Below the pieces are notes generated by a model. That model did not search any database and was not told the origin of the DNA. It worked only from the letters and a program-made list of their open reading frames with translations. A program made the position numbers and the translations under genes. Below are positions 3,441 to 35,873 of a stretch of 38,969 bases of DNA, piece after piece; position 1 is the stretch's first letter, and each line of letters begins with the position of its first letter. Origin of the DNA: Bacteroidota bacterium (GTDB taxonomy: Bacteria > Bacteroidota > Ignavibacteria > UBA10030 > UBA6906); the NCBI GenBank assembly GCA_041493205.1, contig JBGPYM010000003.1:1-38969 (forward strand). The letters are read 5' to 3'.

Positions 3441-4814
3441 TTACGGAGGCGTGTGTTCCAGCCAGCCCCCCGCGAATCCCGCCTTCTTCAGTCCCGTGAT
3501 CACATACGGATTCTTCTTCAACACTTCCCAGACCCGCCCGTTACGGTAATTTTCGATCATCAGGACGATCGGTCCCTGGTCAATCCCGACATAGTCCGGA
3601 TCGAACCAGCCTGACGGTGTCGCGCTTGTCCTGTACGTGGGATTGAATGCATCGACAAACCCGTATTGGCGCCAGACAGCGGAGCCGTATTTTGTACGCA
3701 GGGCGCGGACTGCCTGCAGACATATCCCGGGCGCAAAAGGGAGAGACGAGACGGCTGCAGTCGGCGCGATCGTCCCGTCGTCGAACGACCAGTCGACCGA
3801 CACCCCGCGGGCGGCATAGGTTTGGAACGTTCGTTCCCGGCCCATGACGGTGAAAGTCGTGTCACGCGGCCCATCGCATGCGGTCAAGCCCCAGACGGTG
3901 TCTGCATAATCGGCGAATGAGCGCGGGTTGTGTGCAGCATAGAGCCGGTGGGAGACAGTCGCGCGCCGGGAATTTTCAAAGTAGTCAATCCCTTTTTCAC
4001 GCATGTACGCGTCCGCGATGCCGCGGAAGTCGATCCAGCAATGCGAGTACTGGTGTCCGAACAGGGGACCGAAATTCACAAAATCGAGCCCGTAGAAATT
4101 TCCCCACACATACCGGGATATCCAGTGGCGCCATCCTTCGGGAGGGGCCGGATGGGTCGGAGAGCCAAATGCGAGGATATACATGACCATGGCTTCATTA
4201 TACCCGAACCATGAATCTTTCGACATTCCTCGTTCCGGGTACCACGCGTACGCAAGACCCGCCCTTCCCTCACTCAACCAGATCCAGTCAACACGGCGGT
4301 ACAGCGAGTCCGCCATTTCTCGAATTTCCCGCTCGGCCGCTGCGGGGCCGTTGTAATATGACTGTGCGAAGAGCACTCCCGCCATCAGGAGCCCCGTGTC
4401 GATCGTCGACAATTCGCAATTCCATTCGCGCGTGTTATCGGAGAGGCGCAGCCAGTGATAGAAGAAGCCCCTGTAGCCGGCGACACCCTGCGATTGAGCG
4501 CCCTGCGGCAATGAGAGGAGGTGCCGGAGAGTGTTCCGGACCCTCAGGAGTGCCTCTGCCCGTGTGATGATGCCGCGTTCAGCCGCGATGGGGTAGGACG
4601 TCAGGGCAAATCCGATGGCAGCAATACTTGCGGGAGAGGGCGTTGGTGAGCGGTCGGGGGTCATCCCGGTCGCCGGGTCACTTGTCTCGAGAAACCAGCG
4701 GATGGTCCGGGTCTGGAGAGTGTCCAGCAGTGGGTCCCACGACCGCGTGACCGGCTGTGCACACGATGACGCCGCCATCCCGGCCAGCACGAGGAGAGAG
4801 AGGCAGGTCTTCAC
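3441..4814 (-). CDS. GH144 (putative glucoamylase / endo-beta-1,2-glucanase family) enzyme, exported, possibly a lipoprotein
   Basis: ELSTIDTGLL, GYNEAM, GPLFGHQYSH, WGLTACDGP, DDGTIAPTA, YGFVDAFN, GIDQGP motifs. Probable GTG start at 4814 (VKTCLSLLVLAGMAASSC); the ORF-track extension to 5156 overlaps the upstream gene. Confidence 0.88.
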   Translation of the reverse strand: MKTCLSLLVLAGMAASSCAQPVTRSWDPLLDTLQTRTIRWFLETSDPATGMTPDRSPTPSPASIAAIGFALTSYPIAAERGIITRAEALLRVRNTLRHLLSLPQGAQSQGVAGYRGFFYHWLRLSDNTREWNCELSTIDTGLLMAGVLFAQSYYNGPAAAEREIREMADSLYRRVDWIWLSEGRAGLAYAWYPERGMSKDSWFGYNEAMVMYILAFGSPTHPAPPEGWRHWISRYVWGNFYGLDFVNFGPLFGHQYSHCWIDFRGIADAYMREKGIDYFENSRRATVSHRLYAAHNPRSFADYADTVWGLTACDGPRDTTFTVMGRERTFQTYAARGVSVDWSFDDGTIAPTAAVSSLPFAPGICLQAVRALRTKYGSAVWRQYGFVDAFNPTYRTSATPSGWFDPDYVGIDQGPIVLMIENYRNGRVWEVLKKNPYVITGLKKAGFAGGWLEHTPP

Positions 4815-4818
4815 GGGG

Positions 4819-6387
4819 TCACCGGAGAAGCACCATGATGCGGGCGGCGGAGAAGCGCCCCGCAACCACGCGGCAGATATAGACACCGGCTGCCGCTCCC
4901 CGCGCATCGAATTGGATTGCATGCGTCCCCGCATCCTGGAAGCCGTCCACGAGGGAGACAACCTCCCTCCCGAGGAGGTCATAGACGGCAAGGTGAACGT
5001 GCGCCGCAGCCGGGAGATGGTACGTGATGACGGTTGACGGGTTAAAGGGGTTCGGGTAATTCTGGGCGAGGGAATACCCTCCCGGGGACACCGGTTCCTG
5101 CACGCCTGTGACGGAAACAAATCCCGCCGCCTGCAGGCCTCGCTGGACGTCGGCATTCTTCATGAAACGCTCCCACACCTTCCCTGTCCGGTAATTTTCG
5201 ATCATGATGATCATCGGACCCTGATCGATTCCGATCACATCGGTATCCCACCAGCCGGCGCCAGGATTGAATGCATCCCGGAAGCCGTAGGTCGTCCAGA
5301 GCTGACCCCGGTAATTATTCCACATGTTGCGGATGACAGGAAGGGCGGCCTCGGGTGCAAACGCAATGGAGCTTATGGGCGCGGTCGGCGTAATGGTCCC
5401 ATCATCATCCTGCGCCGGTGGCGCTCCGCGCGCGCGGTAACCGGTCGGGGTGTCGCTTGCAGTGAGTCCCCAAAGGGAATCGCTGTATCCCATAAAGGCA
5501 CCGGGGTTGGCTACCGCATAGGCCCGCTGTGCAAGTGTCGCCCTTCGTGAATTCTCAAAATACGTTATTCCCTTCGACTGCATGTATTGGTCCGTGACCG
5601 ACCGGAAATCAAGCCAGCAGTGCGCATACTGGTGGCCGAAGAGGGGTGGAAACACCACGTAGGAATAGCCGTACAGGGTCTGCCACTGATATCCGGAAGT
5701 CCAGCGCTGCCATGCGGAGGAGGGAACGGGATAGGTGGGCGAGCCGAGGGCGAGCAGGTACATGATGGACGCTTCATTATAACCGATCCACTCTCCGTAG
5801 CCGGTGAATCCCGTTCCCGGTTGGTACCCCATCAGAACGCCAAGATGAAAATTCCGCATGAAATCCCAGTTCATCCTGCGGTAGAGTGAATCTGCAAGAC
5901 CGCGGATGGATTGTTCCAGCGAGTCGTTTCCAGAAAAGTATTCCCTCGCGTCGATGATGCCCGCCAGCAGGAGTCCGGTATCAATCGTTGAGAGCTCGGA
6001 ATCCCACGTTCTCGTTGCCGACGACATATCGAGAAAGTGATAGAAGAGCCCGTACTTGCCGCAATAGGCATTTCCATCTCCCTGCGGACCATACCAGAAG
6101 GTCCGGAGAGTCTGCAGCACCCGTGATGCCGCAGACGCGCGGGGCACCCATCCGTGGTCGGTTCCGATACAGATGCTGGTGAGGCCGAACCCGACGGAGG
6201 CGATGCTTGCAGGCGATCCGGACGTGTTCCGGTCGCGGATGAGCCCGTTGGCGGGATTGGCTTCCAGCCAGAAGAAGTTGAACGCCGCGTGCTGAATCGA
6301 ATCCAGAATCGCGGTGTCCGACAACTGCGCTTCGGCAGGTTCAGCGAGGAGCGTCAGCGCGCAGAGTGCACCGATCAGAAATCGCAT
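4819..6387 (-). CDS. GH144 family enzyme with C-terminal T9SS type A sorting domain
   Basis: Signal peptide ending AEA-Q; ELSTIDTGLL, GYNEA, PLFGHQY, WGLTASD, DDGTITPTA, GIDQGP; CTD LAQNYPNPFNPSTVITY...VYDLLGREV...GVYICRV. Confidence 0.9.
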   Translation of the reverse strand: MRFLIGALCALTLLAEPAEAQLSDTAILDSIQHAAFNFFWLEANPANGLIRDRNTSGSPASIASVGFGLTSICIGTDHGWVPRASAASRVLQTLRTFWYGPQGDGNAYCGKYGLFYHFLDMSSATRTWDSELSTIDTGLLLAGIIDAREYFSGNDSLEQSIRGLADSLYRRMNWDFMRNFHLGVLMGYQPGTGFTGYGEWIGYNEASIMYLLALGSPTYPVPSSAWQRWTSGYQWQTLYGYSYVVFPPLFGHQYAHCWLDFRSVTDQYMQSKGITYFENSRRATLAQRAYAVANPGAFMGYSDSLWGLTASDTPTGYRARGAPPAQDDDGTITPTAPISSIAFAPEAALPVIRNMWNNYRGQLWTTYGFRDAFNPGAGWWDTDVIGIDQGPMIIMIENYRTGKVWERFMKNADVQRGLQAAGFVSVTGVQEPVSPGGYSLAQNYPNPFNPSTVITYHLPAAAHVHLAVYDLLGREVVSLVDGFQDAGTHAIQFDARGAAAGVYICRVVAGRFSAARIMVLLR

Positions 6388-6420: not shown

Positions 6421-8823
6421 TCACTTTCCCAGGACCACTATGATGTGATGTTCCGAACCCGGGGGAAACACCGGAAGTGTTTTGCAGCGCGGCGGGTGTC
6501 CTTCGCACGCAGGAACCCCATCCACAACGACGCGGGCAACCCCCCATTCGACGCGTGCCGGATTCTTCACCTCGATGTTGTATGTTGCGCCCCGGAACAG
6601 CCGGCGGACGCGGTAGCCTTCCCATTCCCGGGGAATGCACGGGTCGATGACAAGCCCATCCTCTGCGGGGCGTACGCCAAGGATCCATTCAAGTCCCACT
6701 TTGAACAACCAGGTTGCCGACCCTGTATACCAGGTCCATCCTCCCCGTCCGAAGTGACGCGAATCGGGCCCTTCGATATTCCCCGCGGTGACATACGGTT
6801 CCGCCTGGTATCGTGCCGGGTTTTTCCCTCTCTTCACCGGATTCAGAGCCGAATAGATGCGATAGGCGGACTCACCGCGACCGATGCGGGCGGCGGCGAT
6901 GACCGCCCAGGTTGCGGCATGCGTATAGACTCCGCCGTTCTCACGTACGCCAGGGGCGTAGCGCGTCAGGTAGCCGACTTCCCGGTCGGGCATTGTATAG
7001 GCCGGACGCAGGAGGAGCGTCCCGATGTCAGACTCGAGCTGCTGCTCCACGATGTCGAACACCCTGCAGGCGCGTTCCGCATCTGCAACCTCGCCGATGA
7101 TGGCCCATGTCTGCGGATTGAGCCACACACTCCCCTCGGTATTTTCCCTGCTCCCCAGTTTTCCGCCCGAGTCCTTTGTCGCTCCGAAATAATATTCACC
7201 ATCCCACGCAATCGTATTAAGGGCCTCGCGGAGCCGGGACGCCCGCTCCCGGTACTGCGCCTCCCGCGGGAGATCTCCCCGACGGCGGGTGAGGGGCGTC
7301 CAGTCCAACAATATACGATGGAGGAAATGTCCGAGCCAAACCGACTCGCCTTTCATATCCAGTCCGACTGCGCTCAGGCCGTCATTCCAGTCACCCGCAC
7401 CAATCAGCGGCAGGCCCCGATCGCTGAACCGTTCCAGGGCTTTGTCGATCGCCCGTGTGCAGTGATTGAACATCGTTTGGGGTGCGGGATCGTCCACGAA
7501 CGGCTCGCGACATTCCAGAATAGATTCGTCGCCCGTTTCCTGAAGATACGCCGTCATGACAAAAGGCATCCAGAGGAGATTATCGGAAATCGTGTTGTGG
7601 AGACCCAGTTCGGAGATCGGATGCCACCAGTGGTAGACGGTCCCGTCGCTGAACTGGTGGCGCGCGTGCAGGAGGAGCTGACGCTTTGTCCCTTCGGGGT
7701 CAATCGGGAGCCAGATCTGGCTGTCCTGAAGCTGATCGCGGAATCCGTATGCTCCTCCCGTCTGGTAATATGCCGTGCGCCCCCAGATGCGCCCGGCAAT
7801 GGCCTGATATTTCAACCATATATTTTCCATCAGGTCCATCGACGGATCGGGGGTCGAGACCCTGGTCGTGCCGAGCAAGGCGTGCCACCGTCCGGTGACA
7901 CTGGCGAGTGCGTCCGCGGCCTGTTCCGGCGTGCGATAACGCACGATCAGCGTCCGTGCATGTTCCGCCGAGTCGGCACAGCCGAGCGTATACACGAGCG
8001 TCGCGTCTTCACCGGGCGCAAGGGTGAGGCGATTCTGCAGGCTGCCGCACGGGTCGAGTCCGTTTCCGACGCGGCGCACGAGCTTCCCGCTCAGCACAGC
8101 AGCCGGCATTGCAGGATTTCCGTACATCCCGAGAAAGGATTCTTTGTCGGTATCAAACGACACCGGGTCGGGACTGACGGAGTGGAATCCGACAAACGGC
8201 CAATCGGTATTCCAGTGGCCCCGGTCGGTTGGCACCTCCCAGAGGCGTTTGACGGCGAAGAGAGCGCCCGTGGTCGTGTCAAGGGACGTCTCGATGAAGT
8301 TCCTGTGAAACTCCCGGTGCCAGTCGGGCGCCTGACCGAGGCCCCATTCGAAGTAACTAAATGTGTCGATACGACGTTTCCTGCGCGAGCCGTTCCGGAT
8401 CCGCAGGACCCACACTTCCACCGGATCCTCCGGAGTCACGAACACGGTCAGGGCAGTGTCGACGCCGAAGTTCTTCGATTCAATTGTCGTATATCCGAGG
8501 CCATGCCGGCACCGGTAGTGATCGGGCCGGGCACCGACGGGTTTCCAACCGGCGGACCAGACGCTTCCGCGATCGTCTCTCAGGTAGATGTATTTCCCCC
8601 AATCATCCCTGATCAGATCCTGTTCCCAGCGCGTCAGCCGGTTGAGCTGAGCGTGCGTGCGCCAGCTGTATCCGCTTCCGGTCTGGGAAATTGTCAGGCC
8701 GTAGTCGCCGTTGCTGATGACGTTAATCCAGGGGCGGGGGGTTTGCGGAGTGGTGATGACGTATTCCGTGCCGTCAGGAGAGAAGAATCCGAAGGGAGTT
8801 TTTGCGAGCGTTGGAGATTTCAT
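6421..8823 (-). CDS. GH94 glycoside phosphorylase (~800 aa), Cgs/NdvB C-terminal type
   Basis: TPRPWINVISN, YQTGGAYGFRDQLQD, catalytic GDWNDGL, RENGGVYTHAATW, GRGGWTWYTGSA. Likely start ATG 8823 (MKSPTL); no signal peptide. Confidence 0.9.
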   Translation of the reverse strand: MKSPTLAKTPFGFFSPDGTEYVITTPQTPRPWINVISNGDYGLTISQTGSGYSWRTHAQLNRLTRWEQDLIRDDWGKYIYLRDDRGSVWSAGWKPVGARPDHYRCRHGLGYTTIESKNFGVDTALTVFVTPEDPVEVWVLRIRNGSRRKRRIDTFSYFEWGLGQAPDWHREFHRNFIETSLDTTTGALFAVKRLWEVPTDRGHWNTDWPFVGFHSVSPDPVSFDTDKESFLGMYGNPAMPAAVLSGKLVRRVGNGLDPCGSLQNRLTLAPGEDATLVYTLGCADSAEHARTLIVRYRTPEQAADALASVTGRWHALLGTTRVSTPDPSMDLMENIWLKYQAIAGRIWGRTAYYQTGGAYGFRDQLQDSQIWLPIDPEGTKRQLLLHARHQFSDGTVYHWWHPISELGLHNTISDNLLWMPFVMTAYLQETGDESILECREPFVDDPAPQTMFNHCTRAIDKALERFSDRGLPLIGAGDWNDGLSAVGLDMKGESVWLGHFLHRILLDWTPLTRRRGDLPREAQYRERASRLREALNTIAWDGEYYFGATKDSGGKLGSRENTEGSVWLNPQTWAIIGEVADAERACRVFDIVEQQLESDIGTLLLRPAYTMPDREVGYLTRYAPGVRENGGVYTHAATWAVIAAARIGRGESAYRIYSALNPVKRGKNPARYQAEPYVTAGNIEGPDSRHFGRGGWTWYTGSATWLFKVGLEWILGVRPAEDGLVIDPCIPREWEGYRVRRLFRGATYNIEVKNPARVEWGVARVVVDGVPACEGHPPRCKTLPVFPPGSEHHIIVVLGK

Positions 8824-8840
8824 GTGCTGTTGGTGAGCGC

Positions 8841-9893
8841 CTAGAACCCGAACGCCACAGTGATCCGGTGCACTGCTCCGAGGCGACCGTGAGACGCCCA
8901 TGCATAGTCAAACCGGAGTTCATTGCCGAGGCCATCCCATGCGACGCCACCTCCCGCTGTCAGCCCGAATTCGGAATCCGTCTGAAAGAGGTTTGCATAC
9001 CCCGCGCGGAGGAACAGGGTCTTCCTGAAGGCGTACTCCGCCCCGAAGCTCAGACATTCCGAATTGTCGCTCGAGTGCTGCGCATCTGCGGCGAGATTGA
9101 CAACGTTCCCCTCGTCAATGCGCAGTGGATACCCCAGACCGACGCGGAAGAGGATAGGCATCGAAAAGTCATCGGACACGAGCTCCGCAGGAATCGCGCT
9201 GTTGTCCCCGTACCGGGAAGGGTCGAGGTCGTACCGGATGCGCATGTCCGTTCCGGAGTAGTGATTTTTTGTCCCGAAATTCGTGAGGCTGGCACCGATC
9301 CGGAGGCCGTCCGCCGAAAGTTCGTACAGGGTACCGATATTGATCCCAAAGAGGTACGTGGAACTATGCCAGATCCTTTCAGTGACGTAATTCACCTGTA
9401 CGCCGCAGAAGAACCTGTCGGTGATGCGGACACCGTAGCCGACGCCGATCAGAAGGTCGTTTACGGAGTACCGCTCTCCGGTCCCGAGGGGCTGGTCCAC
9501 CGTACGAACGTCGATGTCCCCGGAACTCAGCGATGTGACCGCGACGGCGGCCGTGCCGATCTCGCCGAGCCGTACGGCCGCGATTGCGTGGCTGACCGTG
9601 ATGTCCGCGAACCAGAGGTTGTAGGTACACTGTACATCCGAATGTTCCAGAGCTCCGAGGGCGCCGGGATTGTAATAGCTGGAGAGCGCTTCTGTCGAGG
9701 AGGTGACACCGGCCCCGCCCATCGCCGCTGAACGCGCGCTCGGATCAATGAGCGTGAACTGAGCAACGGCAGTTCCGGTTTTGGACTGTGCGGCTCCCAG
9801 GGAGTGCACGGCGACGGTGACCGCAAGGACCCAGAACAGTCGCCGGCGTGCCGGGCATCCCCCGGGGGATGAATATCGTCTGCGCGTCTTCAT
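8841..9893 (-). CDS. PorV/PorQ-like (UPF0164-type) outer-membrane beta-barrel
   Basis: Signal peptide, then FTLIDPSARSAAMGGA and YYNPGALG (PorV/FadL-like N-terminus), alternating beta-strand pattern, FDYAW, terminal Phe (HRITVAFGF). Confidence 0.8.
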   Translation of the reverse strand: MKTRRRYSSPGGCPARRRLFWVLAVTVAVHSLGAAQSKTGTAVAQFTLIDPSARSAAMGGAGVTSSTEALSSYYNPGALGALEHSDVQCTYNLWFADITVSHAIAAVRLGEIGTAAVAVTSLSSGDIDVRTVDQPLGTGERYSVNDLLIGVGYGVRITDRFFCGVQVNYVTERIWHSSTYLFGINIGTLYELSADGLRIGASLTNFGTKNHYSGTDMRIRYDLDPSRYGDNSAIPAELVSDDFSMPILFRVGLGYPLRIDEGNVVNLAADAQHSSDNSECLSFGAEYAFRKTLFLRAGYANLFQTDSEFGLTAGGGVAWDGLGNELRFDYAWASHGRLGAVHRITVAFGF

Positions 9894-9905
9894 GGCCGGT
9901 TGATG

Positions 9906-12900
9906 CTATTTAATGATTGCGAACTTCCCGATGGAGGGGTCAAGCCCTGCCGCTTCCACGTGAAAGATATACAGGCCGGGAGCGACATCGAGATTATCCT
10001 TGGTCCGGAGGTCCCAGGCCACAAACCCGTTCGTGGATCCGTCATGGTGCAGGGTCTGGACGAGCGCGCCCCGTACGTCATAAATCCGCACGACGGCACC
10101 GACCGGCAACCCCCGGAATTCCATGCGACGCTCGCCCCTCCCGGAGACCGCAAAGCGTTCCGGCTCAAAACTTGCCGCGCCGACATAGGGATTGGGGACG
10201 ACATATGGCCCGGATTTATACTGTTCCTTCGACAACGCCGCATCGATGAATTCGCTCCGCGTGGTAAACAGGTAGAGATCGGGGGATCCGACCGGGATAG
10301 AGAACGATTCGCGGTACACGTCTCCCGGCGCCGGCAGGACGAGCGTACCGTGCTGGGCCTGGCCCACGGTGTCTATCTGGAGGCGCCAGGTGACCGTGGC
10401 CGCCGAACCGAAAAACGTCACCAGGTCGATGTAATCGCCCGGTGCGCTCAGGGTACTGTCGTTGTTAGCATCGTGGAAGAAGAACCGCATCCGTGAGGGC
10501 CCTGTCGGCGATGATGCATCAATTCTGAACTTGACCGGGACCGCGGGGCTTCCGATTGCGATAAGGCTTGTATCGATGTAGGACCCTGAAAATGTCAGGG
10601 TATAATCGGCCGGGTACCCGGGCCGCCGCACATCGGCCGAATCAATGTCTTTCCGGATGAACTTGAGCCGCGCATTCCCCAGGCTTCCTTGGAGAAATCC
10701 GCTCGCCACGGTATCCGGTGTGACAAGGTCCGGCGTCGCAATCACGGGGAGGAGCCCGGTTCCCACGGGCCCTCTCCCTTCCCCGTGGAAATCGGCTCCG
10801 GTGGTGAAGAGGGGCCTGTGTGCCGTCGAATCATAGAGTTCATACCGGGACGCATGGATGCGGCCGGGCACATCGACAGAAAACCGTATCACATATGTCC
10901 TGTCGCGCGGCACTTCCTTTGAATTCAGGACCTCCACCCCGACAACGGCGCTCCCGGGTCCTGAGTGCCGGATATCCGATGCACGGGCAGGCGTATAGCC
11001 CGTCACCCGCGGTTCCGGCCGCACCTCCACGACATTTGCCGGGAGGATGGTGCCACCGCGGACCGTCCTTGAAACAGCAATGGAGTTTTCGGACGGGAAG
11101 AAGGCGAGAGAATCCGATCCGCGGTCATACGCGCACACCGCGTAGAAATAATCCTGGCCATTCTTCACGGTTGTATCCGTCATGGTGTGCATCAGACCCG
11201 AATCGGTGCCAAGGTCGTAAGCGACACCTTCGATGATTTGCTTCGAGAAGCCCTTCACTCCGTTCTTGAGGTCGAACCGCTCGATCGGTTTTCCGTTTCC
11301 GAAGGGGCCGGTACCCCGGGCATTGCTGACGGTCTTCGGATCCCGGAAGTCCGGGTCTGTTGAACGGTAGATCTTGTACCCTTCAAAATCATTCTCATGC
11401 GTGACCGGATCGATTCCCCGTTCCGACACGTCGTTCCAGTTCAGGCGGACGTATCGATCGCCCGCCTCCGCGTTGACGATGGGAAGCGGAGGAGGGACAG
11501 CGAACTGGTAATTGGCGTTGTAAATCTGCTGCACCGTCTTGACCTGCGTCCGGAGTTCCTCGAGGTCCGCTCCGTACGCGAGTGCGAGGCTGAACCGTTC
11601 ACGGGATCCCGCCGGGAGACTGAAGGGTCCTGACGCAAAGAGGAAGCCGATGTTGTAGTTCAGCACGACTGCCGAATCGAACCGCGCCGATGGCGATGCG
11701 TTCGTAAACTGGGAATAGAGCATGGGGGGCCAGAGCCCGTAGAACACGATATCATCCACCGGATCGGTCTTGGACGGACCCTTGATCCTGTTCATTTTAA
11801 ATCCGGTCAGTCCGATCTGATCGGACTCATCCTTATCCGTCTGGTTGTAATCCGGTTCGCCGGGGGTGGGCACGCCGTCGCCTTCGCCCGGATCGTGGGA
11901 ACCTGGAATGCCGTCACCCCCTACGTCATCATAATCGGCCACCCAGTTCATGTTCTCATCGCCCGTCCACCACCGTCCCGCCTTGAACGCCGGCCTCGTT
12001 TCGAGTTTGCCGTAAAACGCCTCGAACTTTGAGAGGTTATAGTGTGCCAGGACGTACGACCGGATGTTATCCTGACCGATGATGAGCGTACCCGGATCGC
12101 CGTCGCGCCGCTCGTCCGTGATCCCATCGTCGTCGTCATCGATACCATTGAACGGGTTTCCCGGAGTCTCGAGGTACGCATATCCGAGATACCCTGTGGG
12201 GGAGCAGTTCCCGCGGAGATCGGATCCGTGTCCGGCCTTGTCCCACGTGTAGGTGAGGTTCAGACCGGAGGACCGGTCGAAATAAGCGTTGTCGTCGTCT
12301 GATTCCGCGATACCGTCGCAGGAGAGCGCGGAACCGCCGACCCCGGAATCCATGTAGAGACCGAAGATGATATTGTCAGGGTAATCCGTGGTCGATTCGT
12401 TCGAAATATCATAATGCCAGAAGATGACATTCGTGGCCTGGGGATTCGCCCACTGGAAACCGCGCACTTCCACCTTCAAGCCGAATCCATGGCGGGTCGC
12501 GTCACGGGAATCGGGATGGTAATCCCATTTATCGTAAAAATCGTCGTCCATGACAAAGAAGCTTTCCTGATCTGCGTTTGGACGCTTGCCGAAGTACCCG
12601 TTCCAGCTTCCCGGCCAGCCCGGATCGAACAGATCCGCTGTCTTATCGGGCCATTGTTCCGGCCAGGTCCGCGGGTCGTTGCTGATGGCTATCGATCGAC
12701 CGCGGTTGATGCCCGGATCCGGCTGGAGATACCCCGGGCGGGGTTCGAACCGCATGACTTTTCCGGTGTTCGGGCTCTGTTCCTGCCGTTCACGAAACCC
12801 TGTCTCCATGATATACGTCGGCAAACCGGCGGTGGTAACCTTTGCCAGGACGAACGGGGTAATGCCGTCGGAGTAATTCATCCCGGACCCTTTCGGGACC

Positions 12901-13157
12901 TCCGCCGAGTGGAATACCGACAGGTCGACGTTGAGCGGATCGAGGGGGTAATCGCCGACCATGCCGAAGTTCCAGAAGATCGAACGGATATTCCCCGCAT
13001 CGTGGGTTCCCGACCGTTCCACGTCCGTCCGCGATCGCTGCGATTTCGGTACGACGGGAAGCCACTGGGATTGTGCGTGGCATTCGACCGCGGCCAGAAT
13101 CAGAATCACGCGCAGCCCATAGCCGGCCGCCGGATGCAAGAACCTGGAATGCGTCAT
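9906..13157 (-). CDS. Large secreted hypothetical protein (~1080 aa) with acidic Ca-binding-like motifs, an FN3-like domain and an atypical T9SS-like CTD
   Basis: Signal peptide ending CHA-Q; DDDDDGITDE; FN3-like AGDRYVRLNW...FEGYKIYRS...YFYAVCAYD; C-terminus VVPNPY...VRIYDVRGALV...WDLRTKDNLDVAPGLYIFHVE...GKFAIIK. Start ATG 13157 (or TTG 13178). Confidence 0.8.
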   Translation of the reverse strand: MTHSRFLHPAAGYGLRVILILAAVECHAQSQWLPVVPKSQRSRTDVERSGTHDAGNIRSIFWNFGMVGDYPLDPLNVDLSVFHSAEVPKGSGMNYSDGITPFVLAKVTTAGLPTYIMETGFRERQEQSPNTGKVMRFEPRPGYLQPDPGINRGRSIAISNDPRTWPEQWPDKTADLFDPGWPGSWNGYFGKRPNADQESFFVMDDDFYDKWDYHPDSRDATRHGFGLKVEVRGFQWANPQATNVIFWHYDISNESTTDYPDNIIFGLYMDSGVGGSALSCDGIAESDDDNAYFDRSSGLNLTYTWDKAGHGSDLRGNCSPTGYLGYAYLETPGNPFNGIDDDDDGITDERRDGDPGTLIIGQDNIRSYVLAHYNLSKFEAFYGKLETRPAFKAGRWWTGDENMNWVADYDDVGGDGIPGSHDPGEGDGVPTPGEPDYNQTDKDESDQIGLTGFKMNRIKGPSKTDPVDDIVFYGLWPPMLYSQFTNASPSARFDSAVVLNYNIGFLFASGPFSLPAGSRERFSLALAYGADLEELRTQVKTVQQIYNANYQFAVPPPLPIVNAEAGDRYVRLNWNDVSERGIDPVTHENDFEGYKIYRSTDPDFRDPKTVSNARGTGPFGNGKPIERFDLKNGVKGFSKQIIEGVAYDLGTDSGLMHTMTDTTVKNGQDYFYAVCAYDRGSDSLAFFPSENSIAVSRTVRGGTILPANVVEVRPEPRVTGYTPARASDIRHSGPGSAVVGVEVLNSKEVPRDRTYVIRFSVDVPGRIHASRYELYDSTAHRPLFTTGADFHGEGRGPVGTGLLPVIATPDLVTPDTVASGFLQGSLGNARLKFIRKDIDSADVRRPGYPADYTLTFSGSYIDTSLIAIGSPAVPVKFRIDASSPTGPSRMRFFFHDANNDSTLSAPGDYIDLVTFFGSAATVTWRLQIDTVGQAQHGTLVLPAPGDVYRESFSIPVGSPDLYLFTTRSEFIDAALSKEQYKSGPYVVPNPYVGAASFEPERFAVSGRGERRMEFRGLPVGAVVRIYDVRGALVQTLHHDGSTNGFVAWDLRTKDNLDVAPGLYIFHVEAAGLDPSIGKFAIIK

Positions 13158-13185
13158 GGTGAAGGTCGCCTTCTCCAATGGGAGG

Positions 13186-15933
13186 TTACAGATTCACACG
13201 GAAACCAATTTCGATCCGTCGGGGCGCAGCGAAACGTGACGGATCAGCGAGCGTCGAGCGATCAGTTGCCGGCGTGAGCGAGTAGTACGGGCTGCCGGTC
13301 GTCGAGAAGACAAACCCGTTACCATAGCGTGAATCGAACACGTTGAAGACACGGAGAAAGACATTGAGGCGGACTTGATCGAACGTAAAGGACTTCTCCG
13401 CCCGGACATCCACCGTACCCCACGCAGGTTTGCCTTCCGAATTCCGCTCGAGGCCTGCACCGAATCCAGATCCGATTGCCGGCGTATAGGGACTGCCGCT
13501 GCCGTACTTGATGATCGCACTCATAACGTAATCGTTGGGGTTCACCAGGGTGAGCGCGGCATTGAGCGTGTGGCGCTGGTCCCAGTCGAATGATACCTGC
13601 CGGGGCCGCGGGTCCTCGCCTGCCGACGCACGGGTGAATGTCTCCCGCGGATCGCTTGAATTCCCCACCGCGTTCTGGAACGTGTAATTGAGGGACGCCG
13701 AGAAGTTCTCGGAAAACCGTTGATCATAGCTCAGCTTGATGCCGTAGACCGACCCGAAATCCACATTGGTAAACCGGGCATACTGAGCATCCGCATATGT
13801 CTCGATGAATTCCACACCGAGAAGGTCCCGGACATCCTTGTAGAACACGCTCAGGTCGACGCCGACGAGCCGGCCGAATTCCTGTTTGAATCCGAATTCA
13901 TACTGTGCCGTAAACTCCGGTTTGATGTCCGGGTTTCCCATCAGCGGAAACGTGCTGCTGGAGGCCTGGAGTCGGCTGAGGACAGAATAATCCGAATTGG
14001 CGTACAGGTTGCCGAGGCCCGGCATCTGATAAAAGTGACCGTAGGAGAAGTAGAGCGCACCTGTGGCGGTAATCGGATAGGAGACGCCGAGCCGCGGGGC
14101 GAGCGCAATCTTGCGGCTCGTCCGTTTCGGGAACGATTGCGGAATCTGGTGCGTGCTGTCCCCCTGAATTGCGTTTGCCGGGTTTTCGAGATTACTGGGG
14201 AGGGTGGTATTCGCATCGTAGTATTCCAGCCGCAGCCCAACGCGGATCATGAAATCCGTGAATTCCACCCTATCCTGGACGAACAGCGCCATTGACACGG
14301 GATGATAGGACTTCAGATTCTGGGCAAGAGTATCGGGCACGACATACACCTGCGAGACGCTCCCGGTCAGGATCTGGTAGGCGAGGGTACCGGGGGAACC
14401 GAACCCCACCGTGGCGAGCTGACCTTCGAACCCCGCCTTCACGAGGTGGATAGGAGTAACCTGGCTTGTCAGAGAAGCTTTCACAAGGAAGGCATTCGTC
14501 CTTTGTTCAAACCGTCCGATGTCATATCCCTGGATGGTCGCACCGAGCTCATAGTTTGCGTCACCCCGTGGTGCACCGGCGGCATAGTATCGCGGGTTGT
14601 CCAGCGCATCGAAGGCGTAATCCGTGTAGTGGAAGAAATTCTGACGGAGGTTCAGGGTGTAAAAGGTCGTTGGGGTGATGGTCTGCGTCCAGTCGATGCC
14701 ATGGACGACCGACGTATGGTTCTGGCGCCGCATGCCATCAGGATTGAATCGGAACGCAAAGTTGTACGGCCGCGACTGGCCGGTTGCACCGATGAACTGG
14801 TAACTGAGCTGACCGTCGGTGATGCTGTGGTTGGCGATCTTCACCTGACCGGAATACTCTTCGGAGTTTCCCAGGGGGATGACTTTTCCGTCGCCTCCCG
14901 GCCGGAAGGTCCTGCTGCCGAAATCCGATACGTCGGTCGGGACGAACAGACGCTCCCCGTAGAGGTACCCGTTGTCGCTGAACCTGCGGATGTTGACAAG
15001 GAAGGACGTTTCGGGCAGGCCAGTCGGGCCGCCGAGGGAGACTGTATAGCTCTGGAGCGGGAGAGGAAGTCCGAGATTTCGGAGGCCCTGACCGGCTGTT
15101 TCGCCCGGAAAGGACGGCCGCAGCCACTGTGACCCAAGATGCGGATAGATTGCGGCGTCGGAGCCGTTCACAACATAGAAGCCGCCATATGCTTCAGCGC
15201 TGACATCGAACCGTTCATCCGATCCGCTCCGCAGGACGGCATTGACGACCCCGCTCATGGCCTGGCCATATTCGGCGTCGAACGTCCCGCTGATGACCTG
15301 GACCTCCTGCAACACAGACTTATCGAGTTGAATGACGGAGGAGTTGTCGTACGGATTGTTCACCGAGACACCATCAACCTGGTACTGAACCTCGCCGATG
15401 CGTCCGCCCCGGAAATGGCCGTCGACGACGCCGGCCTGCAGGTTGACGACGTCTGCCAGACTCTGGACCGGGAGGATGTTGATATCGTCTTTATCGAGGA
15501 TTGCCACGGAGCTGGTCTGCCGGGTGTCCACGAGGGGGCGCTGGGCGATCGTCACCACTTCTTCCTTTTCAATGAGCGCCTCCGTGAGAGTCACGTTCAG
15601 GGTTGTCGTCTGTCCGGCATTGACCCTCACCTCCTTCACGACTCTGGACTGGTAGCCGACGGCGCTTGACCGCACATCGTAGATCGAGGCCGGGACATTG
15701 AGAATCACGTAGTTGCCGTCGATATCTGCAGCCGCGCCGAGTGTCGTTCCGAGGATCACGACCGTGGCGCCGACCACCGGCTGGCCTTTCGGGTCCGCGA
15801 TCCGGCCGGTCAGTTTACCGCGCGTATCCGCGGCAGCCGTCGAGGCAAGGAGCACAAGCAGCAGTGCGGTCCGGATCAGCCAGACAGGCATCCGATGACG
15901 AATCACTCCCGGGGCGGCGCACCGTTGATCCAT
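13186..15933 (-). CDS. TonB-dependent receptor with N-terminal carboxypeptidase-regulatory-like domain
   Basis: GKLTGRIAD..G.PVVGATV N-domain; plug HFRGGR..EVQYQVDGV and GTFDAEYGQAMSGVVN; barrel PRLGVSYPI, GNPDIKPE, C-terminal PRRIEIGFRVNL. Start ATG 15933 has GAGG upstream. Confidence 0.92.
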   Translation of the reverse strand: MDQRCAAPGVIRHRMPVWLIRTALLLVLLASTAAADTRGKLTGRIADPKGQPVVGATVVILGTTLGAAADIDGNYVILNVPASIYDVRSSAVGYQSRVVKEVRVNAGQTTTLNVTLTEALIEKEEVVTIAQRPLVDTRQTSSVAILDKDDINILPVQSLADVVNLQAGVVDGHFRGGRIGEVQYQVDGVSVNNPYDNSSVIQLDKSVLQEVQVISGTFDAEYGQAMSGVVNAVLRSGSDERFDVSAEAYGGFYVVNGSDAAIYPHLGSQWLRPSFPGETAGQGLRNLGLPLPLQSYTVSLGGPTGLPETSFLVNIRRFSDNGYLYGERLFVPTDVSDFGSRTFRPGGDGKVIPLGNSEEYSGQVKIANHSITDGQLSYQFIGATGQSRPYNFAFRFNPDGMRRQNHTSVVHGIDWTQTITPTTFYTLNLRQNFFHYTDYAFDALDNPRYYAAGAPRGDANYELGATIQGYDIGRFEQRTNAFLVKASLTSQVTPIHLVKAGFEGQLATVGFGSPGTLAYQILTGSVSQVYVVPDTLAQNLKSYHPVSMALFVQDRVEFTDFMIRVGLRLEYYDANTTLPSNLENPANAIQGDSTHQIPQSFPKRTSRKIALAPRLGVSYPITATGALYFSYGHFYQMPGLGNLYANSDYSVLSRLQASSSTFPLMGNPDIKPEFTAQYEFGFKQEFGRLVGVDLSVFYKDVRDLLGVEFIETYADAQYARFTNVDFGSVYGIKLSYDQRFSENFSASLNYTFQNAVGNSSDPRETFTRASAGEDPRPRQVSFDWDQRHTLNAALTLVNPNDYVMSAIIKYGSGSPYTPAIGSGFGAGLERNSEGKPAWGTVDVRAEKSFTFDQVRLNVFLRVFNVFDSRYGNGFVFSTTGSPYYSLTPATDRSTLADPSRFAAPRRIEIGFRVNL

Positions 15934-15963: not shown

Positions 15964-16005
15964 AATAGAAAACGGGGCGGCCTGGGAACGGCCGCCTCGC
16001 TTTCT
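15964..16005 (-). terminator. Putative intrinsic terminator between the CBM9-like gene and the TBDR
   Basis: Minus strand GCGAGGCGGCC-GTTCCCA-GGCCGCCCCGT followed by TTTCTATT. Confidence 0.6.
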
Positions 16006-16075: not shown

Positions 16076-17953
16076 CTACTTCAGCAGCATCATGCTCTTT
16101 GTTTGTGTATAGCGCTGCGCCCCGCTCTGGCCTGGCACAAATTCCAGACGGTAGAAGTAGACGCCTGATGCAAGGCCTGCTGCGTTGAACGAGTGTTCCT
16201 GTACACCGCCGGCAGTGACGGCGAATCCCGCAGTGGACACCTGGCGCCCCAGAATATCGAACACCGTCAGGGTCGCGGTCCCGCTCCCCGGGAGGGAGAA
16301 CCGGATCTTGGTCGACGGGTTGAACGGATTCGGGTAATTGCCGTACAGGCGGAATTCCTGTGCGAGTCCCGAGCCGTCCTGGTCGCCGACGCCGGTCACC
16401 AGGGTCGCATTATCCAGCAGGCAGAATGCCGGACTTGCAGCCCACGGCCATTCGCGGAACCACCAGGTGCGGGAGGCGGCGGTATCATGTCCGGCGTGGT
16501 TGAAGTCCACGTCGTGGAGGTTGAATCCGAGGGCAACCACCTTGTTCTGAGCGCCCGCGGTATAGCCGAGCTTCGCAAGATCAAGGACAGCTTCCAGCGT
16601 GTATCCGTTGTCCACGTCGTTGTTATTGTCGATCGTGGTGCCGCTCTTGAGGGCGAGGCCGTACGTGAGCGCACCGGCGGTCGAAGGGAGTTCATCGGCC
16701 CACCGGACCGAAGATCCGCCCTTGGCAACGCTATCAACCTGAATGCCGAACCGTTTGCGTCCCATGAAGTGGACGTTCGGGTCTCTGAGCGAGTCGATGG
16801 GTATATTCATACTGATCTGCAGCGCATCCATCCAATCATCGCTCACGGCATGGTTCACCGACTGATCCGCCACGTCGGCGCCGATATAGAGCTTGTCACC
16901 GAGGAAGAACATTTTCACTGTCGCAACGCCGGCGTCGAACGGTACTCCCGTCGGTGCGAACTGGCCGCTGTGTTCGGGTCCGATGGTCGGATAGGCGGCG
17001 CGGTTGGCGTCGTTCCCGTACTGGATGGTAAAGGAGGGAACATGTGACCAAACAGCGTCAGCCAGTGATCCGTCAACGGTCGGGGCGGCGAAATTCGTAC
17101 CGTTCGGTATCACCCTGTCATATGGGTATGCCGGGAGAGACGTTGTGTTGATATTGACGTCGCTGCGCACCAGCACGCGGCCGGCAAGCCCGCCGCCGTT
17201 GTTTCCCCATTCGTTGCCCCACCACGCCTTCGTCCCCACAAAGCTGGGGGTGTTGCTCCAGTCCCTGTCCCAGATACAGATGGTCATTTGCACGGCGTCG
17301 GTCGTCACGGAATTGGCGTTGTACCCGAGACTGTCGAGTTTCACCGCCAGTTCCATCCTCCACCCCTGGTCGGCCACACGCTGTCCCACGCCGTTCGTGT
17401 CCACGTTGGACTGTCCCTGGACCGTGGTCACGCCGGTGACGATATTCCTGCTGGGGAGGGCTCCAGCAGTCATATTCGGCAACTGACCTGCCCCGGCCGA
17501 ATCGATCCAGGTCGTGAAGATATCCTGATGGAGGGCGACTTTGCTCGGGTTGGCACGCTCCCGTCTGTTATAGATGCCTGCGAGGAGTCCGTCGCATGCT
17601 TCCCAACCGGCGCCTCCGACCGAGCTGTCCTTTGACGTAATAGCCAGGTAGAGGGTATTCGTCGTCTTGTTGACGAGGAATTTTACCACGGCATTTGCCC
17701 CATTACCGACGGGGGCTGTGCCGTTCATGACCTTCCAGCCGTCTTCGGGGTTGCCCGATTTCACGCCGTACTGGATTACGATGGAATCGGCCTTGGCCCA
17801 CGCCGCTTCGTTGAAGTTCCCATCGAGGGTGATAGTTGCGCCGAGGACATCGCGTGCCCAGACATAATCCTTTCGCGGCGAGAACTGCGCAAACACCGCT
17901 CCGCCGGCGAAGACGCCGACGATCAGCAGCATAAGCAGTCTGCGTGTATTCAT
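16076..17953 (-). CDS. Secreted protein with two CBM9/DOMON-like repeats and a T9SS type A CTD
   Basis: Signal peptide ending VFA-Q; repeated ITLDGNFNEAAW / PTVDGSLADAVW, LYLAITSKD / LYIGADVAD, GWRMELAVKLDSLGY / GYTLEAVLDLAKLGY; CTD LYGNYPNPFNPSTKIRF...GVYFYRL...KSMMLLK; GGAGG RBS. Confidence 0.8.
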   Translation of the reverse strand: MNTRRLLMLLIVGVFAGGAVFAQFSPRKDYVWARDVLGATITLDGNFNEAAWAKADSIVIQYGVKSGNPEDGWKVMNGTAPVGNGANAVVKFLVNKTTNTLYLAITSKDSSVGGAGWEACDGLLAGIYNRRERANPSKVALHQDIFTTWIDSAGAGQLPNMTAGALPSRNIVTGVTTVQGQSNVDTNGVGQRVADQGWRMELAVKLDSLGYNANSVTTDAVQMTICIWDRDWSNTPSFVGTKAWWGNEWGNNGGGLAGRVLVRSDVNINTTSLPAYPYDRVIPNGTNFAAPTVDGSLADAVWSHVPSFTIQYGNDANRAAYPTIGPEHSGQFAPTGVPFDAGVATVKMFFLGDKLYIGADVADQSVNHAVSDDWMDALQISMNIPIDSLRDPNVHFMGRKRFGIQVDSVAKGGSSVRWADELPSTAGALTYGLALKSGTTIDNNNDVDNGYTLEAVLDLAKLGYTAGAQNKVVALGFNLHDVDFNHAGHDTAASRTWWFREWPWAASPAFCLLDNATLVTGVGDQDGSGLAQEFRLYGNYPNPFNPSTKIRFSLPGSGTATLTVFDILGRQVSTAGFAVTAGGVQEHSFNAAGLASGVYFYRLEFVPGQSGAQRYTQTKSMMLLK

Positions 17954-17974: not shown

Positions 17975-19024
17975 CTATAGTGATGGAATGTGTTGAATTA
18001 GTGGATCTCTCACATGAGCATGATACGACGTGCATCCGCATGATTCGCGCAGGACCAGCGTCGTCGGAAGCACGATCTGCTGTCTGCAATGGGTATTTTT
18101 ATTCCGCACTGCATGGAGGAGGGTTTCGATTGCGCGAATACCGAGATTGTGGATACCCACCTGTACCGAGGTGAGTGCCGGTGTCAGGTACGATGCAATG
18201 GGAACATCATCGAACCCGGCAACGGCGACACCTTCCGGGATTTGGATTTCTTCATCGCGGAACGCGCTCAGCGCGCCGATGGCCATGGAATCATTACATG
18301 CAAAGACCGCCGTCGGCCGCGGTGACAGGGCAAGGAGCTGTTTGGCTGCGTCAAATCCGGATGCTTCGGTGAAGTTTCCATCCACCTGGAACCGCGGGTC
18401 GGGCGTACCTCCGCCTTCCGTTATCGCGTCGGTCCAGCCGCGGAGCCGTTCCGAGGCGTCAATATTCCGTTCAGTCCCCTTGATGATGGCGATCCGCGTG
18501 TGCCCGTGCCAGAGAAGATGCTGCGTCATCGCGAAGGCGCCGCCGTAATTGTCGATGTTGAGCGAGTCGAACCCGTTCGATTCCACGTGGCAGTTCAGTA
18601 GGACGACCGGCAGCGATTGCGGAAGATTTTCGTTGAGGGTTTCCGCGTCAATGTGGGGAGACATGATCACGAGTCCGTCCACCCGCCCGCGCATCATCGT
18701 CAGGGCGGCGCGGATTTCCTCCCGGTTGTTGTGCGAGCTGGAGACCACCAGATGGTGGTGCGCCTTCTGGGCGGTCTGGTCGCTGCCTCGGAGCACTTCC
18801 GAGAAAAATTCGCCGAACAGATCGGGAAGGAGCAGTCCGATGGCGTCGGTCCGCTTCGTGCTGAGCCCCCGACCGAGGGCATTCGGCACGTACTTCAGGC
18901 GCCGGGCAACAAGGCGGACCTGGCGCTCCGTGTCCTCCTCCACTGGGCCGACGTTGTTAAAAACCCGGGAGACCGTTGCGATAGACACGCCTGCCTCGCG
19001 CGCTACGTCTTTTATTGTAATCAT
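17975..19024 (-). CDS. LacI family transcriptional regulator
   Basis: MITIKDVAREAGVSIATVSRVFN helix-turn-helix, YVPNALGRGL hinge, PTAVFACNDSMAIG, GFDD, PALTSV. Start ATG 19024. Confidence 0.96.
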   Translation of the reverse strand: MITIKDVAREAGVSIATVSRVFNNVGPVEEDTERQVRLVARRLKYVPNALGRGLSTKRTDAIGLLLPDLFGEFFSEVLRGSDQTAQKAHHHLVVSSSHNNREEIRAALTMMRGRVDGLVIMSPHIDAETLNENLPQSLPVVLLNCHVESNGFDSLNIDNYGGAFAMTQHLLWHGHTRIAIIKGTERNIDASERLRGWTDAITEGGGTPDPRFQVDGNFTEASGFDAAKQLLALSPRPTAVFACNDSMAIGALSAFRDEEIQIPEGVAVAGFDDVPIASYLTPALTSVQVGIHNLGIRAIETLLHAVRNKNTHCRQQIVLPTTLVLRESCGCTSYHAHVRDPLIQHIPSL

Positions 19025-19074
19025 CTGTGAGTTGTACCGCCAGGTGCTTACCAAATGGCGTGATTTACGACGCG

Positions 19075-19086
19075 GCAACCGTTTAC
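19075..19086. promoter_or_regulatory. Secondary imperfect LacI-type operator
   Basis: GCAACCGTTTAC, a 10/12 match to the core GTAAACGTTTAC of the main operator. Confidence 0.5.
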
Positions 19087-19127: not shown

Positions 19128-19156
19128 ATTATAGGAAGGAGGAAAGTAATTGTCAA
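19128..19156 (-). promoter_or_regulatory. Sigma70 promoter of the glycan locus
   Basis: Minus strand TTGACA (19156-19151), exactly 17 bp, then TATAAT (19133-19128); A-rich UP-like tract at 19157-19166. Confidence 0.88.
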
Positions 19157-35823: not shown

Positions 35824-35858
35824 TGCTTCCTCCGATTATTTCGCCCGTACCAGACGGT

Positions 35859-35873
35859 TCAACATATGTGCCA
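35859..35873 (-). promoter_or_regulatory. Sigma54-like promoter of the ccmF operon
   Basis: Minus strand TGGCAC-ATATG-TTGA (GA instead of GC at -12), ~36 bp upstream of the ATG with a GGAGGA RBS in between. Confidence 0.65.

Follow-up and report, generated by a model that had tools for sequence, protein, structure and literature searches.

Several outer-membrane systems combine a TonB-dependent receptor with a partner at the cell surface. In Bacteroides, BtuB-BtuG joins such a receptor to a surface-exposed co-receptor, and the TbpA-TbpB-Slam-type clusters of Proteobacteria encode a TonB-dependent receptor together with a surface lipoprotein and a translocator barrel. In Bacteroidia, ligands are handed to the receptor by the lipoprotein SusD or by a surface glycan-binding protein, and the prediction of polysaccharide utilisation loci (PULs) is, in the portions of the literature drawn on here, keyed on susC/susD tandems. 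Other barrels at the surface are components of type IX secretion systems (T9SS). According to excerpts of a review, PorZ retains its C-terminal domain (CTD) for binding to the PorQ barrel, that of PorU remains on PorV, and cognate PorV-like barrels have been suggested to protect the CTD from cleavage; a cryo-EM study of the translocon, used in part, describes how substrates exit the translocon on a cognate carrier protein, by which those of type B are anchored at the surface. The subject of this report is a 38,969-nucleotide stretch of DNA (the window) from a sediment bacterium of the Bacteroidota, class Ignavibacteria (GenBank assembly GCA_041493205.1), in which a TonB-dependent receptor, a large protein with a T9SS-type CTD and a PorV-like barrel are encoded by three consecutive genes. 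The window is contig C24 of a 381-contig, 3.2-Mb assembly that is 92.9% complete; the G+C content is about 60%.

A preliminary description of the window had read these genes as a SusD-less uptake module, in which a private barrel holds the large protein at the surface as a lid or receptor for the TonB-dependent receptor and so replaces SusD. All three genes were found where it had placed them, on the minus strand. They are interpreted here as one outer-membrane uptake module, the beta-glucan copy of a large paralogous family, in which a T9SS-exported glycan receptor, held on a private barrel, would serve the TonB-dependent receptor; a probability of roughly 0.55 is assigned to this reading. 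Three-gene cassettes of this type seem to be a widespread alternative, so far not described, to the SusC/SusD pair for glycan uptake. The parts of the module are listed below, the limits of the signal peptide and of the domains having been read from sequences and models.

13186..15933, minus strand: TonB-dependent receptor with PF00593 and PF13620 matches; the open reading frame (ORF) extends to a GTG at 16050
9906-13178, minus strand: large protein of 1090 amino acids (aa), no Pfam family
13068..13178, minus strand: signal peptide of the large protein, residues 1-37, of signal-peptidase-I type as read from the sequence
11493..13067, minus strand: head domain of the large protein, residues 38-562, a galactose-mutarotase-like beta-supersandwich in an AlphaFold2 model
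10224..11492, minus strand: stalk of the large protein, residues 563-985, which in the whole-protein model has an Fn3-like domain with additional beta-sandwich domains after it
9909..10223, minus strand: C-terminal domain of the large protein, residues 986-1090, a predicted divergent T9SS CTD of type A fold and PorZ-like class
8841..9893, minus strand: barrel of the PorV/PorQ family, 350 aa (NF033709, 182 bits)

Conservation and multiplication of the cassette

One genome per species was scanned for relatives of the large protein, and 63 loci were obtained (31-80% identity); those with at least 600 bp of room beside the large-protein gene were taken as testable. A receptor gene lies directly upstream of the large protein in 59 of 59 testable loci and a barrel gene directly downstream in 53 of 54, an arrangement far beyond chance, and the synteny of receptor, cargo and PorV-like barrel that the preliminary description had proposed to look for in distant lineages is therefore present. 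The intergenic gaps are mostly between -4 and +40 bp. The public records of metagenome-assembled genomes that carry these loci are labelled Ignavibacteriota, Kryptoniota, Rhodothermales, Balneolales, Neomarinimicrobiota, Eisenbacteria and unclassified Bacteroidota. Closer relatives keep the whole locus, including the genes for the LacI-family regulator, the CBM9 protein, the triad, GH94 and GH144. The sole exception to the barrel rule (L039) has room downstream and no barrel, the next recognised gene being on the opposite strand.

The cassette is also present in several copies per genome. On five further contigs of the source genome (C111, C351, C193, C355 and C380), a protein with a tail of the same class is encoded just upstream of a PorV-family barrel; only C355 also shows a receptor, and most of the five contigs end at the cassette. 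For a relative of 4.8 Mb with a less fragmented assembly (G001), all 21 PorV-family barrels over the cut-off were taken. Fifteen of them stand in the order receptor, tail-bearing protein (514-1229 aa), barrel, with one gene split in three of these cassettes, and in a further two the three genes are arranged differently (L093 and L099). Of the other four, one is the canonical PorV next to PorU (979.5 bits), one is the canonical PorQ (253.6 bits), and two lack a receptor. The locus of the window is thus no isolated oddity and belongs to a multi-copy family of modules, with 15 triads in G001.

In 12 cassettes of G001, the distances of the components were strongly correlated (Mantel r of 0.72 for barrel and tail, 0.89 for barrel and receptor, 0.81 for receptor and tail, and 0.89 for receptor and body of the large protein; none of 5000 permutations reached any of these values), and for this reason the cassettes are considered to duplicate and diverge as units. 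Genes adjoining the G001 cassettes encode two alginate-lyase-type enzymes, a GHL10 protein, a GH38 mannosidase, a CBM20 protein and a sugar-binding protein.

Two loci of G001 show peculiarities of their own. The alginate-lyase cassette contains, after its PorV-family barrel, a second barrel of 482 aa (L094:4544-5992), whose best match is BamG (68.7 bits; cut-off 250). At L091 (G001:C8:2715767-2731693), two cassettes with the same head are arranged tail to tail, and one of the barrel genes is split by a frameshift.

The TonB-dependent receptor

The receptor ORF comprises 954 aa when counted from the GTG; position 15933 is an ATG at residue 40, and a further ATG at residue 54 (15891) precedes a hydrophobic, signal-like stretch. 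The protein matches TonB_dep_Rec_b-barrel (PF00593, 111.6 bits, cut-off 27) and CarboxypepD_reg (PF13620, 64.1 bits), and its Plug match of 23.2 bits is 0.7 below the cut-off of 23.9 (E 1e-4); it thus has the combination of barrel and plug by which TonB-dependent receptors are recognised. Against the SusC/RagA model TIGR04056 it scored 64.9 bits, compared with a cut-off of 368.25, and the match was confined to model positions 2-118, which belong to the N-terminal extension. Judged by these profiles, the receptor is a SusC-like N-terminal CarboxypepD_reg extension on a non-SusC barrel.

No match to SusD_RagB (PF07980) was found in the whole source genome (92.9% complete), and none of its TonB-dependent receptors exceeded the TIGR04056 cut-off. 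The preliminary description had called the receptor non-SusC and the locus SusD-less; the former agrees with the TIGR04056 score, and the latter applies to the source genome as a whole. In G001, PF00593 identified 25 TonB-dependent receptors, 10 of them in cassette loci; as several cassette receptors were missed by this profile at E<=1e-5, no share of receptors belonging to cassettes is given.

The large protein

The large protein has no match to any Pfam family at E<=0.01 or to any PDB sequence at E<=1, and in the protein atlas it falls into unnamed clusters only. Its N-terminus reads as a signal for signal peptidase I, with Gln after the likely cleavage site and no lipobox; of 35 homologues, 2 show a lipobox pattern, which in both lies within the hydrophobic core. 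The protein had been described as a non-lipoprotein of about 1080 residues, which is close to the 1090 aa found and consistent with the signal as it reads.

By eye, the signal peptide of most of the 35 homologues closes with a small-x-small motif followed by Gln, as it does in the barrel and the CBM9 protein of the window. These ends in the homologues (L027-L089) resemble the 'Q-rule', which, according to the part consulted of a published study (PMC5837995), holds in Bacteroidetes and not across the entire Fibrobacteres-Chlorobi-Bacteroidetes (FCB) group.

The model of the whole protein (mean predicted local distance difference test, pLDDT, 77.1; predicted template modelling score, pTM, 0.68) consists of a large N-terminal domain, which is followed by an Fn3-like domain, more sandwiches and the tail. 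As a Foldseek search with the whole model returned generic arrays of Fn3/Ig domains (PorZ at rank 8; TM <0.1), the head was folded alone. The resulting AlphaFold2 model of residues 38-562 (pLDDT 80.1, pTM 0.82) was aligned by VIA-align with the N-domain of dextran dextrinase (9ju0; Z 19.7, root-mean-square deviation 3.1 A over 255 residues), the N-domain of GH15 glucoamylase (1lf6; Z 19.3, 3.1 A, 235 residues), the N-domain of glucodextranase (Z 19.2), the GH94 domain of cyclic beta-1,2-glucan synthase (8rf9; Z 18.2) and galactose mutarotases (Z 14.6); further matches were to other GH94, GH149, GH65 and GH116 enzymes. In the best matches, the aligned chain ranges are those of non-catalytic N-domains only. 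Foldseek with the head alone gave an E of 4e-7 and a probability of 1.00, the TM of only 0.33 being due to insertions. The match spans the whole head and covers about half of its residues, while some 250 residues are insertions that hold invariant Asp/Gly-rich motifs, which look like calcium sites. In the model, then, the head has a beta-supersandwich fold like that of galactose mutarotase.

The models are beta-rich with few short helices and contain no (alpha/alpha)6, TIM or other catalytic barrel and no SusD-like helical fold. The assumption that the large protein has neither a SusD fold nor that of a recognisable hydrolase is borne out by the structure models, by Foldseek and by the structural alignments. 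The stalk is common to the shorter middle proteins of other cassettes. Only five cassettes of G001 have this head and the others share just the Fn3-like part and the tail, which suggests that the head is the variable and presumably substrate-specific part of the protein.

The C-terminal domain

The tail, which comprises the last 105 residues, is the best-conserved part of the large protein, with a mean column identity of 61% compared with 37% for the whole. It contains an invariant VVPNPY motif followed by an inserted loop of 20-25 residues and ends with ...FAIIK; seven strands are modelled between residues 992 and 1088. Scanned alone against the type A model TIGR04183, it scored 16.9 bits and missed the cut-off of 23, whereas the two type A tails of neighbouring proteins in the same locus scored 34.8 and 34.0 bits, a difference that the preliminary description had noticed. 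Three sets of tails were compared with NCBIfam: 35 orthologue tails, 16 tails of G001 cassettes and 18 ordinary type A tails from the same loci.

PorZ CTD model: orthologue tails 35/35; G001 cassette tails 16/16; ordinary type A tails 1/18
TIGR04183 (type A): orthologue tails 24/35 at E<=1, best 7e-4, none reported over the cut-off; G001 cassette tails 14/16; ordinary type A tails 18/18
PorU CTD model: orthologue tails 35/35; G001 cassette tails 13/16; ordinary type A tails 17/18
TIGR04131 (type B): orthologue tails 1/35 (E 0.12); G001 cassette tails none; ordinary type A tails 5/18

The match to PorZ is the discriminating one, since it is shared by 51 of 51 cassette-class tails and by 1 of 18 ordinary type A tails; it covers the last ~65 positions of NF052228, with best E-values of 1.4e-7 among the orthologues and 2.6e-10 in G001. 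The type B model CHU_C is weakly matched by 19 of the 35 orthologue tails (best 1e-4, below the cut-off). As hhalign detects core homology to the local type A tails (90.5% probability over 49 columns) and the model has seven strands, the tail is regarded as a divergent subclass of the type A fold and not as type B. The precedent that had been invoked, a type B CTD with a PorP/SprF barrel, is therefore not the right one: the tail is of divergent type A fold and nearest to that of PorZ, and the barrel is of the PorV/PorQ family. By analogy with PorZ, the tail may remain uncleaved and be retained on the barrel in the cell.

In a subgroup of proteins (L100:5669-8887 and L102:7037-10315 in G001, and those of contigs C193 and C355), a conserved extension of 8-10 residues (...EQQILDRY/F/W) continues past the normal end of the tail, which in these cases is thus not at the extreme C-terminus. 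The best hits of the tail profile (P0121-P0123, P0126 and P0133) are proteins of 1821-3930 aa with 11-17 tandem tail-like domains, in which the fold is used as a repeat.

The barrel and its modelled complex with the tail

The barrel matches the PorV/PorQ family model NF033709 over positions 2-326 of 326 with 182 bits, twice its cut-off of 90, as expected for the PorV-like barrel first described. It scores below the cut-offs of the models for PorV proper (NF033710, 73.1 of 250) and PorQ proper (NF033711, 85.4 of 220), and it gave no PorP/SprF match at E<=0.01 in NCBIfam. In sequence it is only distantly similar to the solved PorV (E 1e-4). The source genome also encodes the SprA translocon of T9SS and, on another contig, a canonical PorV (252.3 bits). 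In a tree of 21 barrels, the deep forks were unresolved and PorV, PorQ and L108 had long branches; for these reasons, no separate clade of cassette barrels is claimed.

A complex of the barrel with its cognate tail was modelled, each partner being supplied as an alignment of 34 matched sequences. The interface score ipSAE was 0.92 in all three runs and 0.00 in the best of three controls, with a partner pLDDT of 79-80 and at least 83% of contacts common between runs. In the calibration of the tool, 58 of 80 solved complexes and 2 of 110 mismatched pairs attained the mark; these figures apply only roughly when own alignments are used. Docking of the CTD on the barrel, which the preliminary description had suggested checking in this way, is thus predicted. 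The co-divergence of components in the 12 paralogous cassettes of G001 favours the idea that the barrel is private to the large protein, and it is proposed as the carrier and anchor of that protein.

Other genes of the locus and the probable substrate

The cassette is part of one run of minus-strand genes, from 19078 down to 1, that encode in order the LacI-family regulator, the CBM9 protein, the receptor, the 1090-aa protein, the barrel, GH94, two GH144-like proteins, GH2 and GH3. The features outside the cassette are the following.

19128..19156, minus strand: sigma-70-like promoter directly 5' of the LacI gene, a consensus match only (12/12 consensus positions)
17975..19078, minus strand: LacI-family transcriptional regulator (LacI helix-turn-helix 57.8 bits, Peripla_BP_3 122.9 bits)
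16076..17953, minus strand: secreted protein of 625 aa with a CBM9-like domain (CBM9_1 25.1 bits) and an ordinary type A T9SS tail (Por_Secre_tail / TIGR04183 34.8 bits, cut-off 23)
15973..15999, no strand assigned: G+C-rich hairpin with a 10-bp stem (9 G-C pairs) and T-rich flanks on both strands
6421..8901, minus strand: GH94 phosphorylase (Glyco_hydro_94 383.9 bits, GH94 supersandwich 283.3 bits)
4819..6387, minus strand: GH144-like glucanase with an ordinary type A T9SS tail (PF10091 266.1 bits, TIGR04183 34.0 bits)
3441..5156, minus strand: second GH144-like gene, without a T9SS tail (PF10091 267.6 bits, from residue 315 onward)
750..3425, minus strand: GH2-family glycosidase (Glyco_hydro_2 domains)
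1..753, minus strand: N-terminal part of a GH3 glycosidase (Glyco_hydro_3 160.1 bits), the gene leaving the window

The LacI-family regulator is likely to be the sensor of the locus, and a homologue occupies the same position in most related loci; the total count of promoter-like sites in the region is at chance level. The CBM9 protein is kept upstream of the receptor in the closer related loci. With the CBM9-protein gene ending at 16076 and the receptor gene probably starting at 15933 or 15891, the hairpin falls between the two; it may be an attenuator or a stable 3' end of mRNA that sets different levels for the two flanking genes.

The GH94 phosphorylase, for which no signal peptide was seen by eye, is presumably cytoplasmic; among solved structures it is closest to the GH94 domain of cyclic beta-1,2-glucan synthase (E 4e-157), with cellobiose phosphorylase next (E 2e-141). 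The GH144-like glucanase at 4819-6387 is related to XCC2207 (3e-103) and to the endo-beta-1,2-glucanase 5gzh (2e-50), and its tail marks it as the putative surface or secreted copy. The ORF of the second GH144-like protein (3441-5156) overlaps the first by ~340 bases. Translation of it probably begins at an internal position, immediately ahead of a short hydrophobic segment with a terminal Cys; this Cys could be that of a lipobox, which would give one T9SS-secreted and one lipoprotein copy.

GH144, GH3 and GH94 enzymes act together on beta-1,2-glucan. On the basis of this teamwork and of the relatives of the GH144 and GH94 proteins, beta-1,2-glucan is most likely the ligand of this copy of the cassette; since cellobiose phosphorylases score nearly as well, a beta-1,4 or mixed beta-glucan is also conceivable.

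Apart from the cassette and its enzymes, the window contains at 33853-38904 a gene for cytochrome c maturation of the CcmF type and, after it, two genes for multihaem cytochromes. One of these has an MtrC/MtrF-like domain, which hints at extracellular electron transfer.

Proposed mechanism and alternative explanations

The 1090-aa protein would be exported by Sec by means of its signal-peptidase-I signal and would then cross the outer membrane through T9SS. At the translocon, its PorZ-like CTD may be recognised by the adjacently encoded barrel and not by the housekeeping PorV; this barrel would carry the large protein off the translocon and keep the uncleaved tail at the cell surface, as PorQ keeps PorZ. 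The stalk of Fn3-like sandwiches might lift the head, which would bind the glycan or oligosaccharides, most likely of beta-1,2-glucan cut by the T9SS-secreted GH144, and hand the ligand to the co-encoded TonB-dependent receptor, the part that SusD or a surface glycan-binding protein plays in Bacteroidia. The second GH144, GH3, GH2 and the GH94 phosphorylase, controlled by LacI, would complete the breakdown of the imported oligosaccharides. Tail retention, surface display, glycan binding, the identity of the ligand and physical contact with the receptor are the steps that we infer.

Several observations weigh against this scheme. Its weakest link is the contact with the receptor, as the complex model covered the tail and the barrel only. 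That model, run with the cognate tail alone, is silent on specificity, and its high score may partly reflect likeness to known complexes, because PorV-CTD complexes have been solved. Invariant columns show no clear enrichment at the modelled interface, counted by hand: 8 of 16 in the tail fall among 38 interface residues of 105, and 4 of 21 in the barrel among 48 of 350. The likeness of the tails to the PorU CTD is uninformative, since 17 of 18 ordinary type A tails match that model too. The co-divergence of components indicates that cassettes duplicate as units and is no proof of contact between the proteins. Some cassettes lie away from glycan enzymes, L102 being beside Ser/Thr kinases with tetratricopeptide (TPR) repeats and L106 beside a muramoyl-alanine amidase. 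The head has many invariant acidic residues, and some enzymes use the mutarotase-like fold for catalysis. Expression data were not found, all 24 runs listed being DNA of sediment metagenomes. Finally, three of five cassette-bearing genomes hold SusD genes as well, and the cassette should thus be considered an alternative to SusD and not a strict substitute; to call it a replacement, as had been done, is too strong.

Instead, the large protein may be an enzyme anchored at the surface, a glycanase, lyase or epimerase from a family not yet described; it would be a counterpart of SusG on a private barrel, and the receptor would need no binding partner. The supersandwich is the catalytic domain of aldose epimerases and is prominent among matches to lyases and to a GH174 fucanase; invariant Trp residues accompany the Asp and Glu of the head, and the head varies between cassettes as the specificity of an enzyme would. 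The best structural matches, however, align to a non-catalytic N-domain, the model has no (alpha/alpha)6 or TIM barrel, CAZy-type Pfam matches are lacking, and the surface cut is already covered by the T9SS-secreted GH144 of the locus. One such protein per receptor, strictly adjacent, is moreover the pattern of a co-receptor, and an enzymatic role is regarded as unlikely.

Another explanation could be that the large protein and the barrel form a T9SS cargo-carrier pair, such as an adhesin or a component of the surface coat, merely co-regulated with the receptor through induction by the substrate, so that no three-part machine exists. This would fit the model support, which concerns the contact of tail and barrel only, the cassettes without nearby glycan enzymes, and the order variants L093 and L099, where the barrel is beside the receptor and the tail protein is elsewhere in the locus. 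It would leave unexplained why the receptor is adjacent in all 59 loci, with gaps of a few bases or overlaps of 4 bp that suggest coupled translation, why receptor and body co-diverge as tightly as barrel and receptor (r 0.89), and why 17 of 21 barrels of G001 have a receptor in the locus; mere co-regulation thus seems improbable. It is very improbable that the barrel is not an anchor at all but a helper of receptor assembly, like the PorV-like BamG of the Bacteroidota barrel assembly machinery (BAM) complex, or a FadL-type channel of its own, since the weak BamG and FadL/Toluene_X matches that could be taken in this sense (window barrel to BamG, 16.3 bits, and Toluene_X, 19.8 bits; L100 barrel, 28.8 bits; and the second barrel of L094 to BamG) are far under the BamG cut-off, while the barrel co-diverges with the tail, is joined to it with high confidence in the model and is paired in every cassette with a protein of the same tail class.

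The reading as an uptake module served by a T9SS-exported receptor is preferred here. In a bolder form, the three proteins would make up a stable complex, with the T9SS carrier barrel docked beside the TonB-dependent receptor and holding over it a CTD-anchored co-receptor that is no lipoprotein. This would be a third general architecture of outer-membrane nutrient uptake, in which T9SS carriers have been recruited from secretion to import; it, and not SusC/SusD, would be the main means of glycan capture in Ignavibacteria, Kryptonia, Rhodothermia and neighbouring FCB lineages, with head swapping setting the range of substrates. Such a generalisation is possible but doubtful.

Distribution and significance

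In a sample of the phylum, the head profile was found in 87 of 201 genomes (53 of 110 genera), a single genome having as many as 12 copies; in some families it was found in none of the sampled genomes (0/39, 0/13 and 0/12). The large protein has at least 3898 relatives among clusters at 90% identity, and among the best 120 listed every source name is 'hypothetical protein'. The tail class has 3662 representatives at E<=1e-10.

In the portions consulted of the open-access literature, to which the search was confined (subscription journals and supplements being outside its scope), no description of a cassette of receptor, CTD protein and PorV-like barrel was found, including in PMC10202324, PMC10994853, PMC5317091, PMC3534657, PMC5753385 and PMC13543919; the absence of a prior characterisation of such a three-part glycan-import machine, as had been supposed, agrees with this, within the same limits. 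Genes of this kind may be listed in the gene tables of the papers on the Melioribacter and Caldithrix genomes. The terms T9SS, type IX, Ignavibacteri and Rhodotherm do not occur in a review of bacterial glycoside transporters from 2026. As the recognition of PULs relies on the susC/susD tandem, the cassettes are invisible to it.

If the proposed model is true, the cassette would provide a rule for the prediction of substrate-uptake loci in lineages of sediment and soil with few or no SusD genes. It would also represent a new job for the carrier proteins of T9SS, G001 giving 15-17 of its 21 PorV-family barrels to cassettes, as well as a natural experiment on a TonB-dependent transporter that is served by a non-lipoprotein partner.

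Comparison with known systems

The closest parallel is the SusC/SusD PUL. Both have a TonB-dependent transporter beside a dedicated surface partner, in a regulated locus of glycan enzymes, and both occur as many paralogous copies per genome with different sets of enzymes; the receptor here carries the N-terminal CarboxypepD_reg extension of SusC, and the enzymes and regulator expected of a PUL are present (GH94, two GH144-like proteins, GH2, GH3, the CBM9 protein and LacI). The differences lie in the partner, which is 630-1230 aa long, beta-rich in the model, a non-lipoprotein and predicted to be exported by T9SS, whereas SusD has an all-helical TPR fold; in the third gene, for a PorV/PorQ-family barrel, which is obligatory here; and in the transporter, which has no SusD_RagB gene beside it and falls short of TIGR04056.

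The anchor is most similar to PorZ-PorQ and PorU-PorV. The cassette tail is most like that of PorZ, the barrel belongs to the same family, and in those pairs, too, the CTD is retained at a surface barrel. The cassette barrels differ in being extra paralogues beside the canonical PorV and PorQ, each adjoining its own cargo and a TonB-dependent receptor, and the cargo is outside the secretion machinery. Type B CTD proteins with PorP/SprF barrels (SprB-SprF), as described in the parts of the sources used here, follow the same logic of an adjacent gene for a dedicated carrier barrel that takes and anchors one cargo; in contrast to them, the cassette tail is not type B, the barrel has no PorP/SprF match, and the cargo is linked to import and not to gliding.

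The TbpA-TbpB-Slam clusters resemble the cassette in that a TonB-dependent receptor is combined with a surface co-receptor whose display needs a dedicated outer-membrane barrel, but the protein families and the export route are unrelated, a lipoprotein and Slam in one case and a T9SS CTD and a PorV-like carrier in the other. In this comparison, the cassette appears to work like a SusC/SusD pair yet lacks both of the features by which that pair is defined, and its anchor appears to be of the PorZ-PorQ kind, provided by extra paralogues that are dedicated to import loci.

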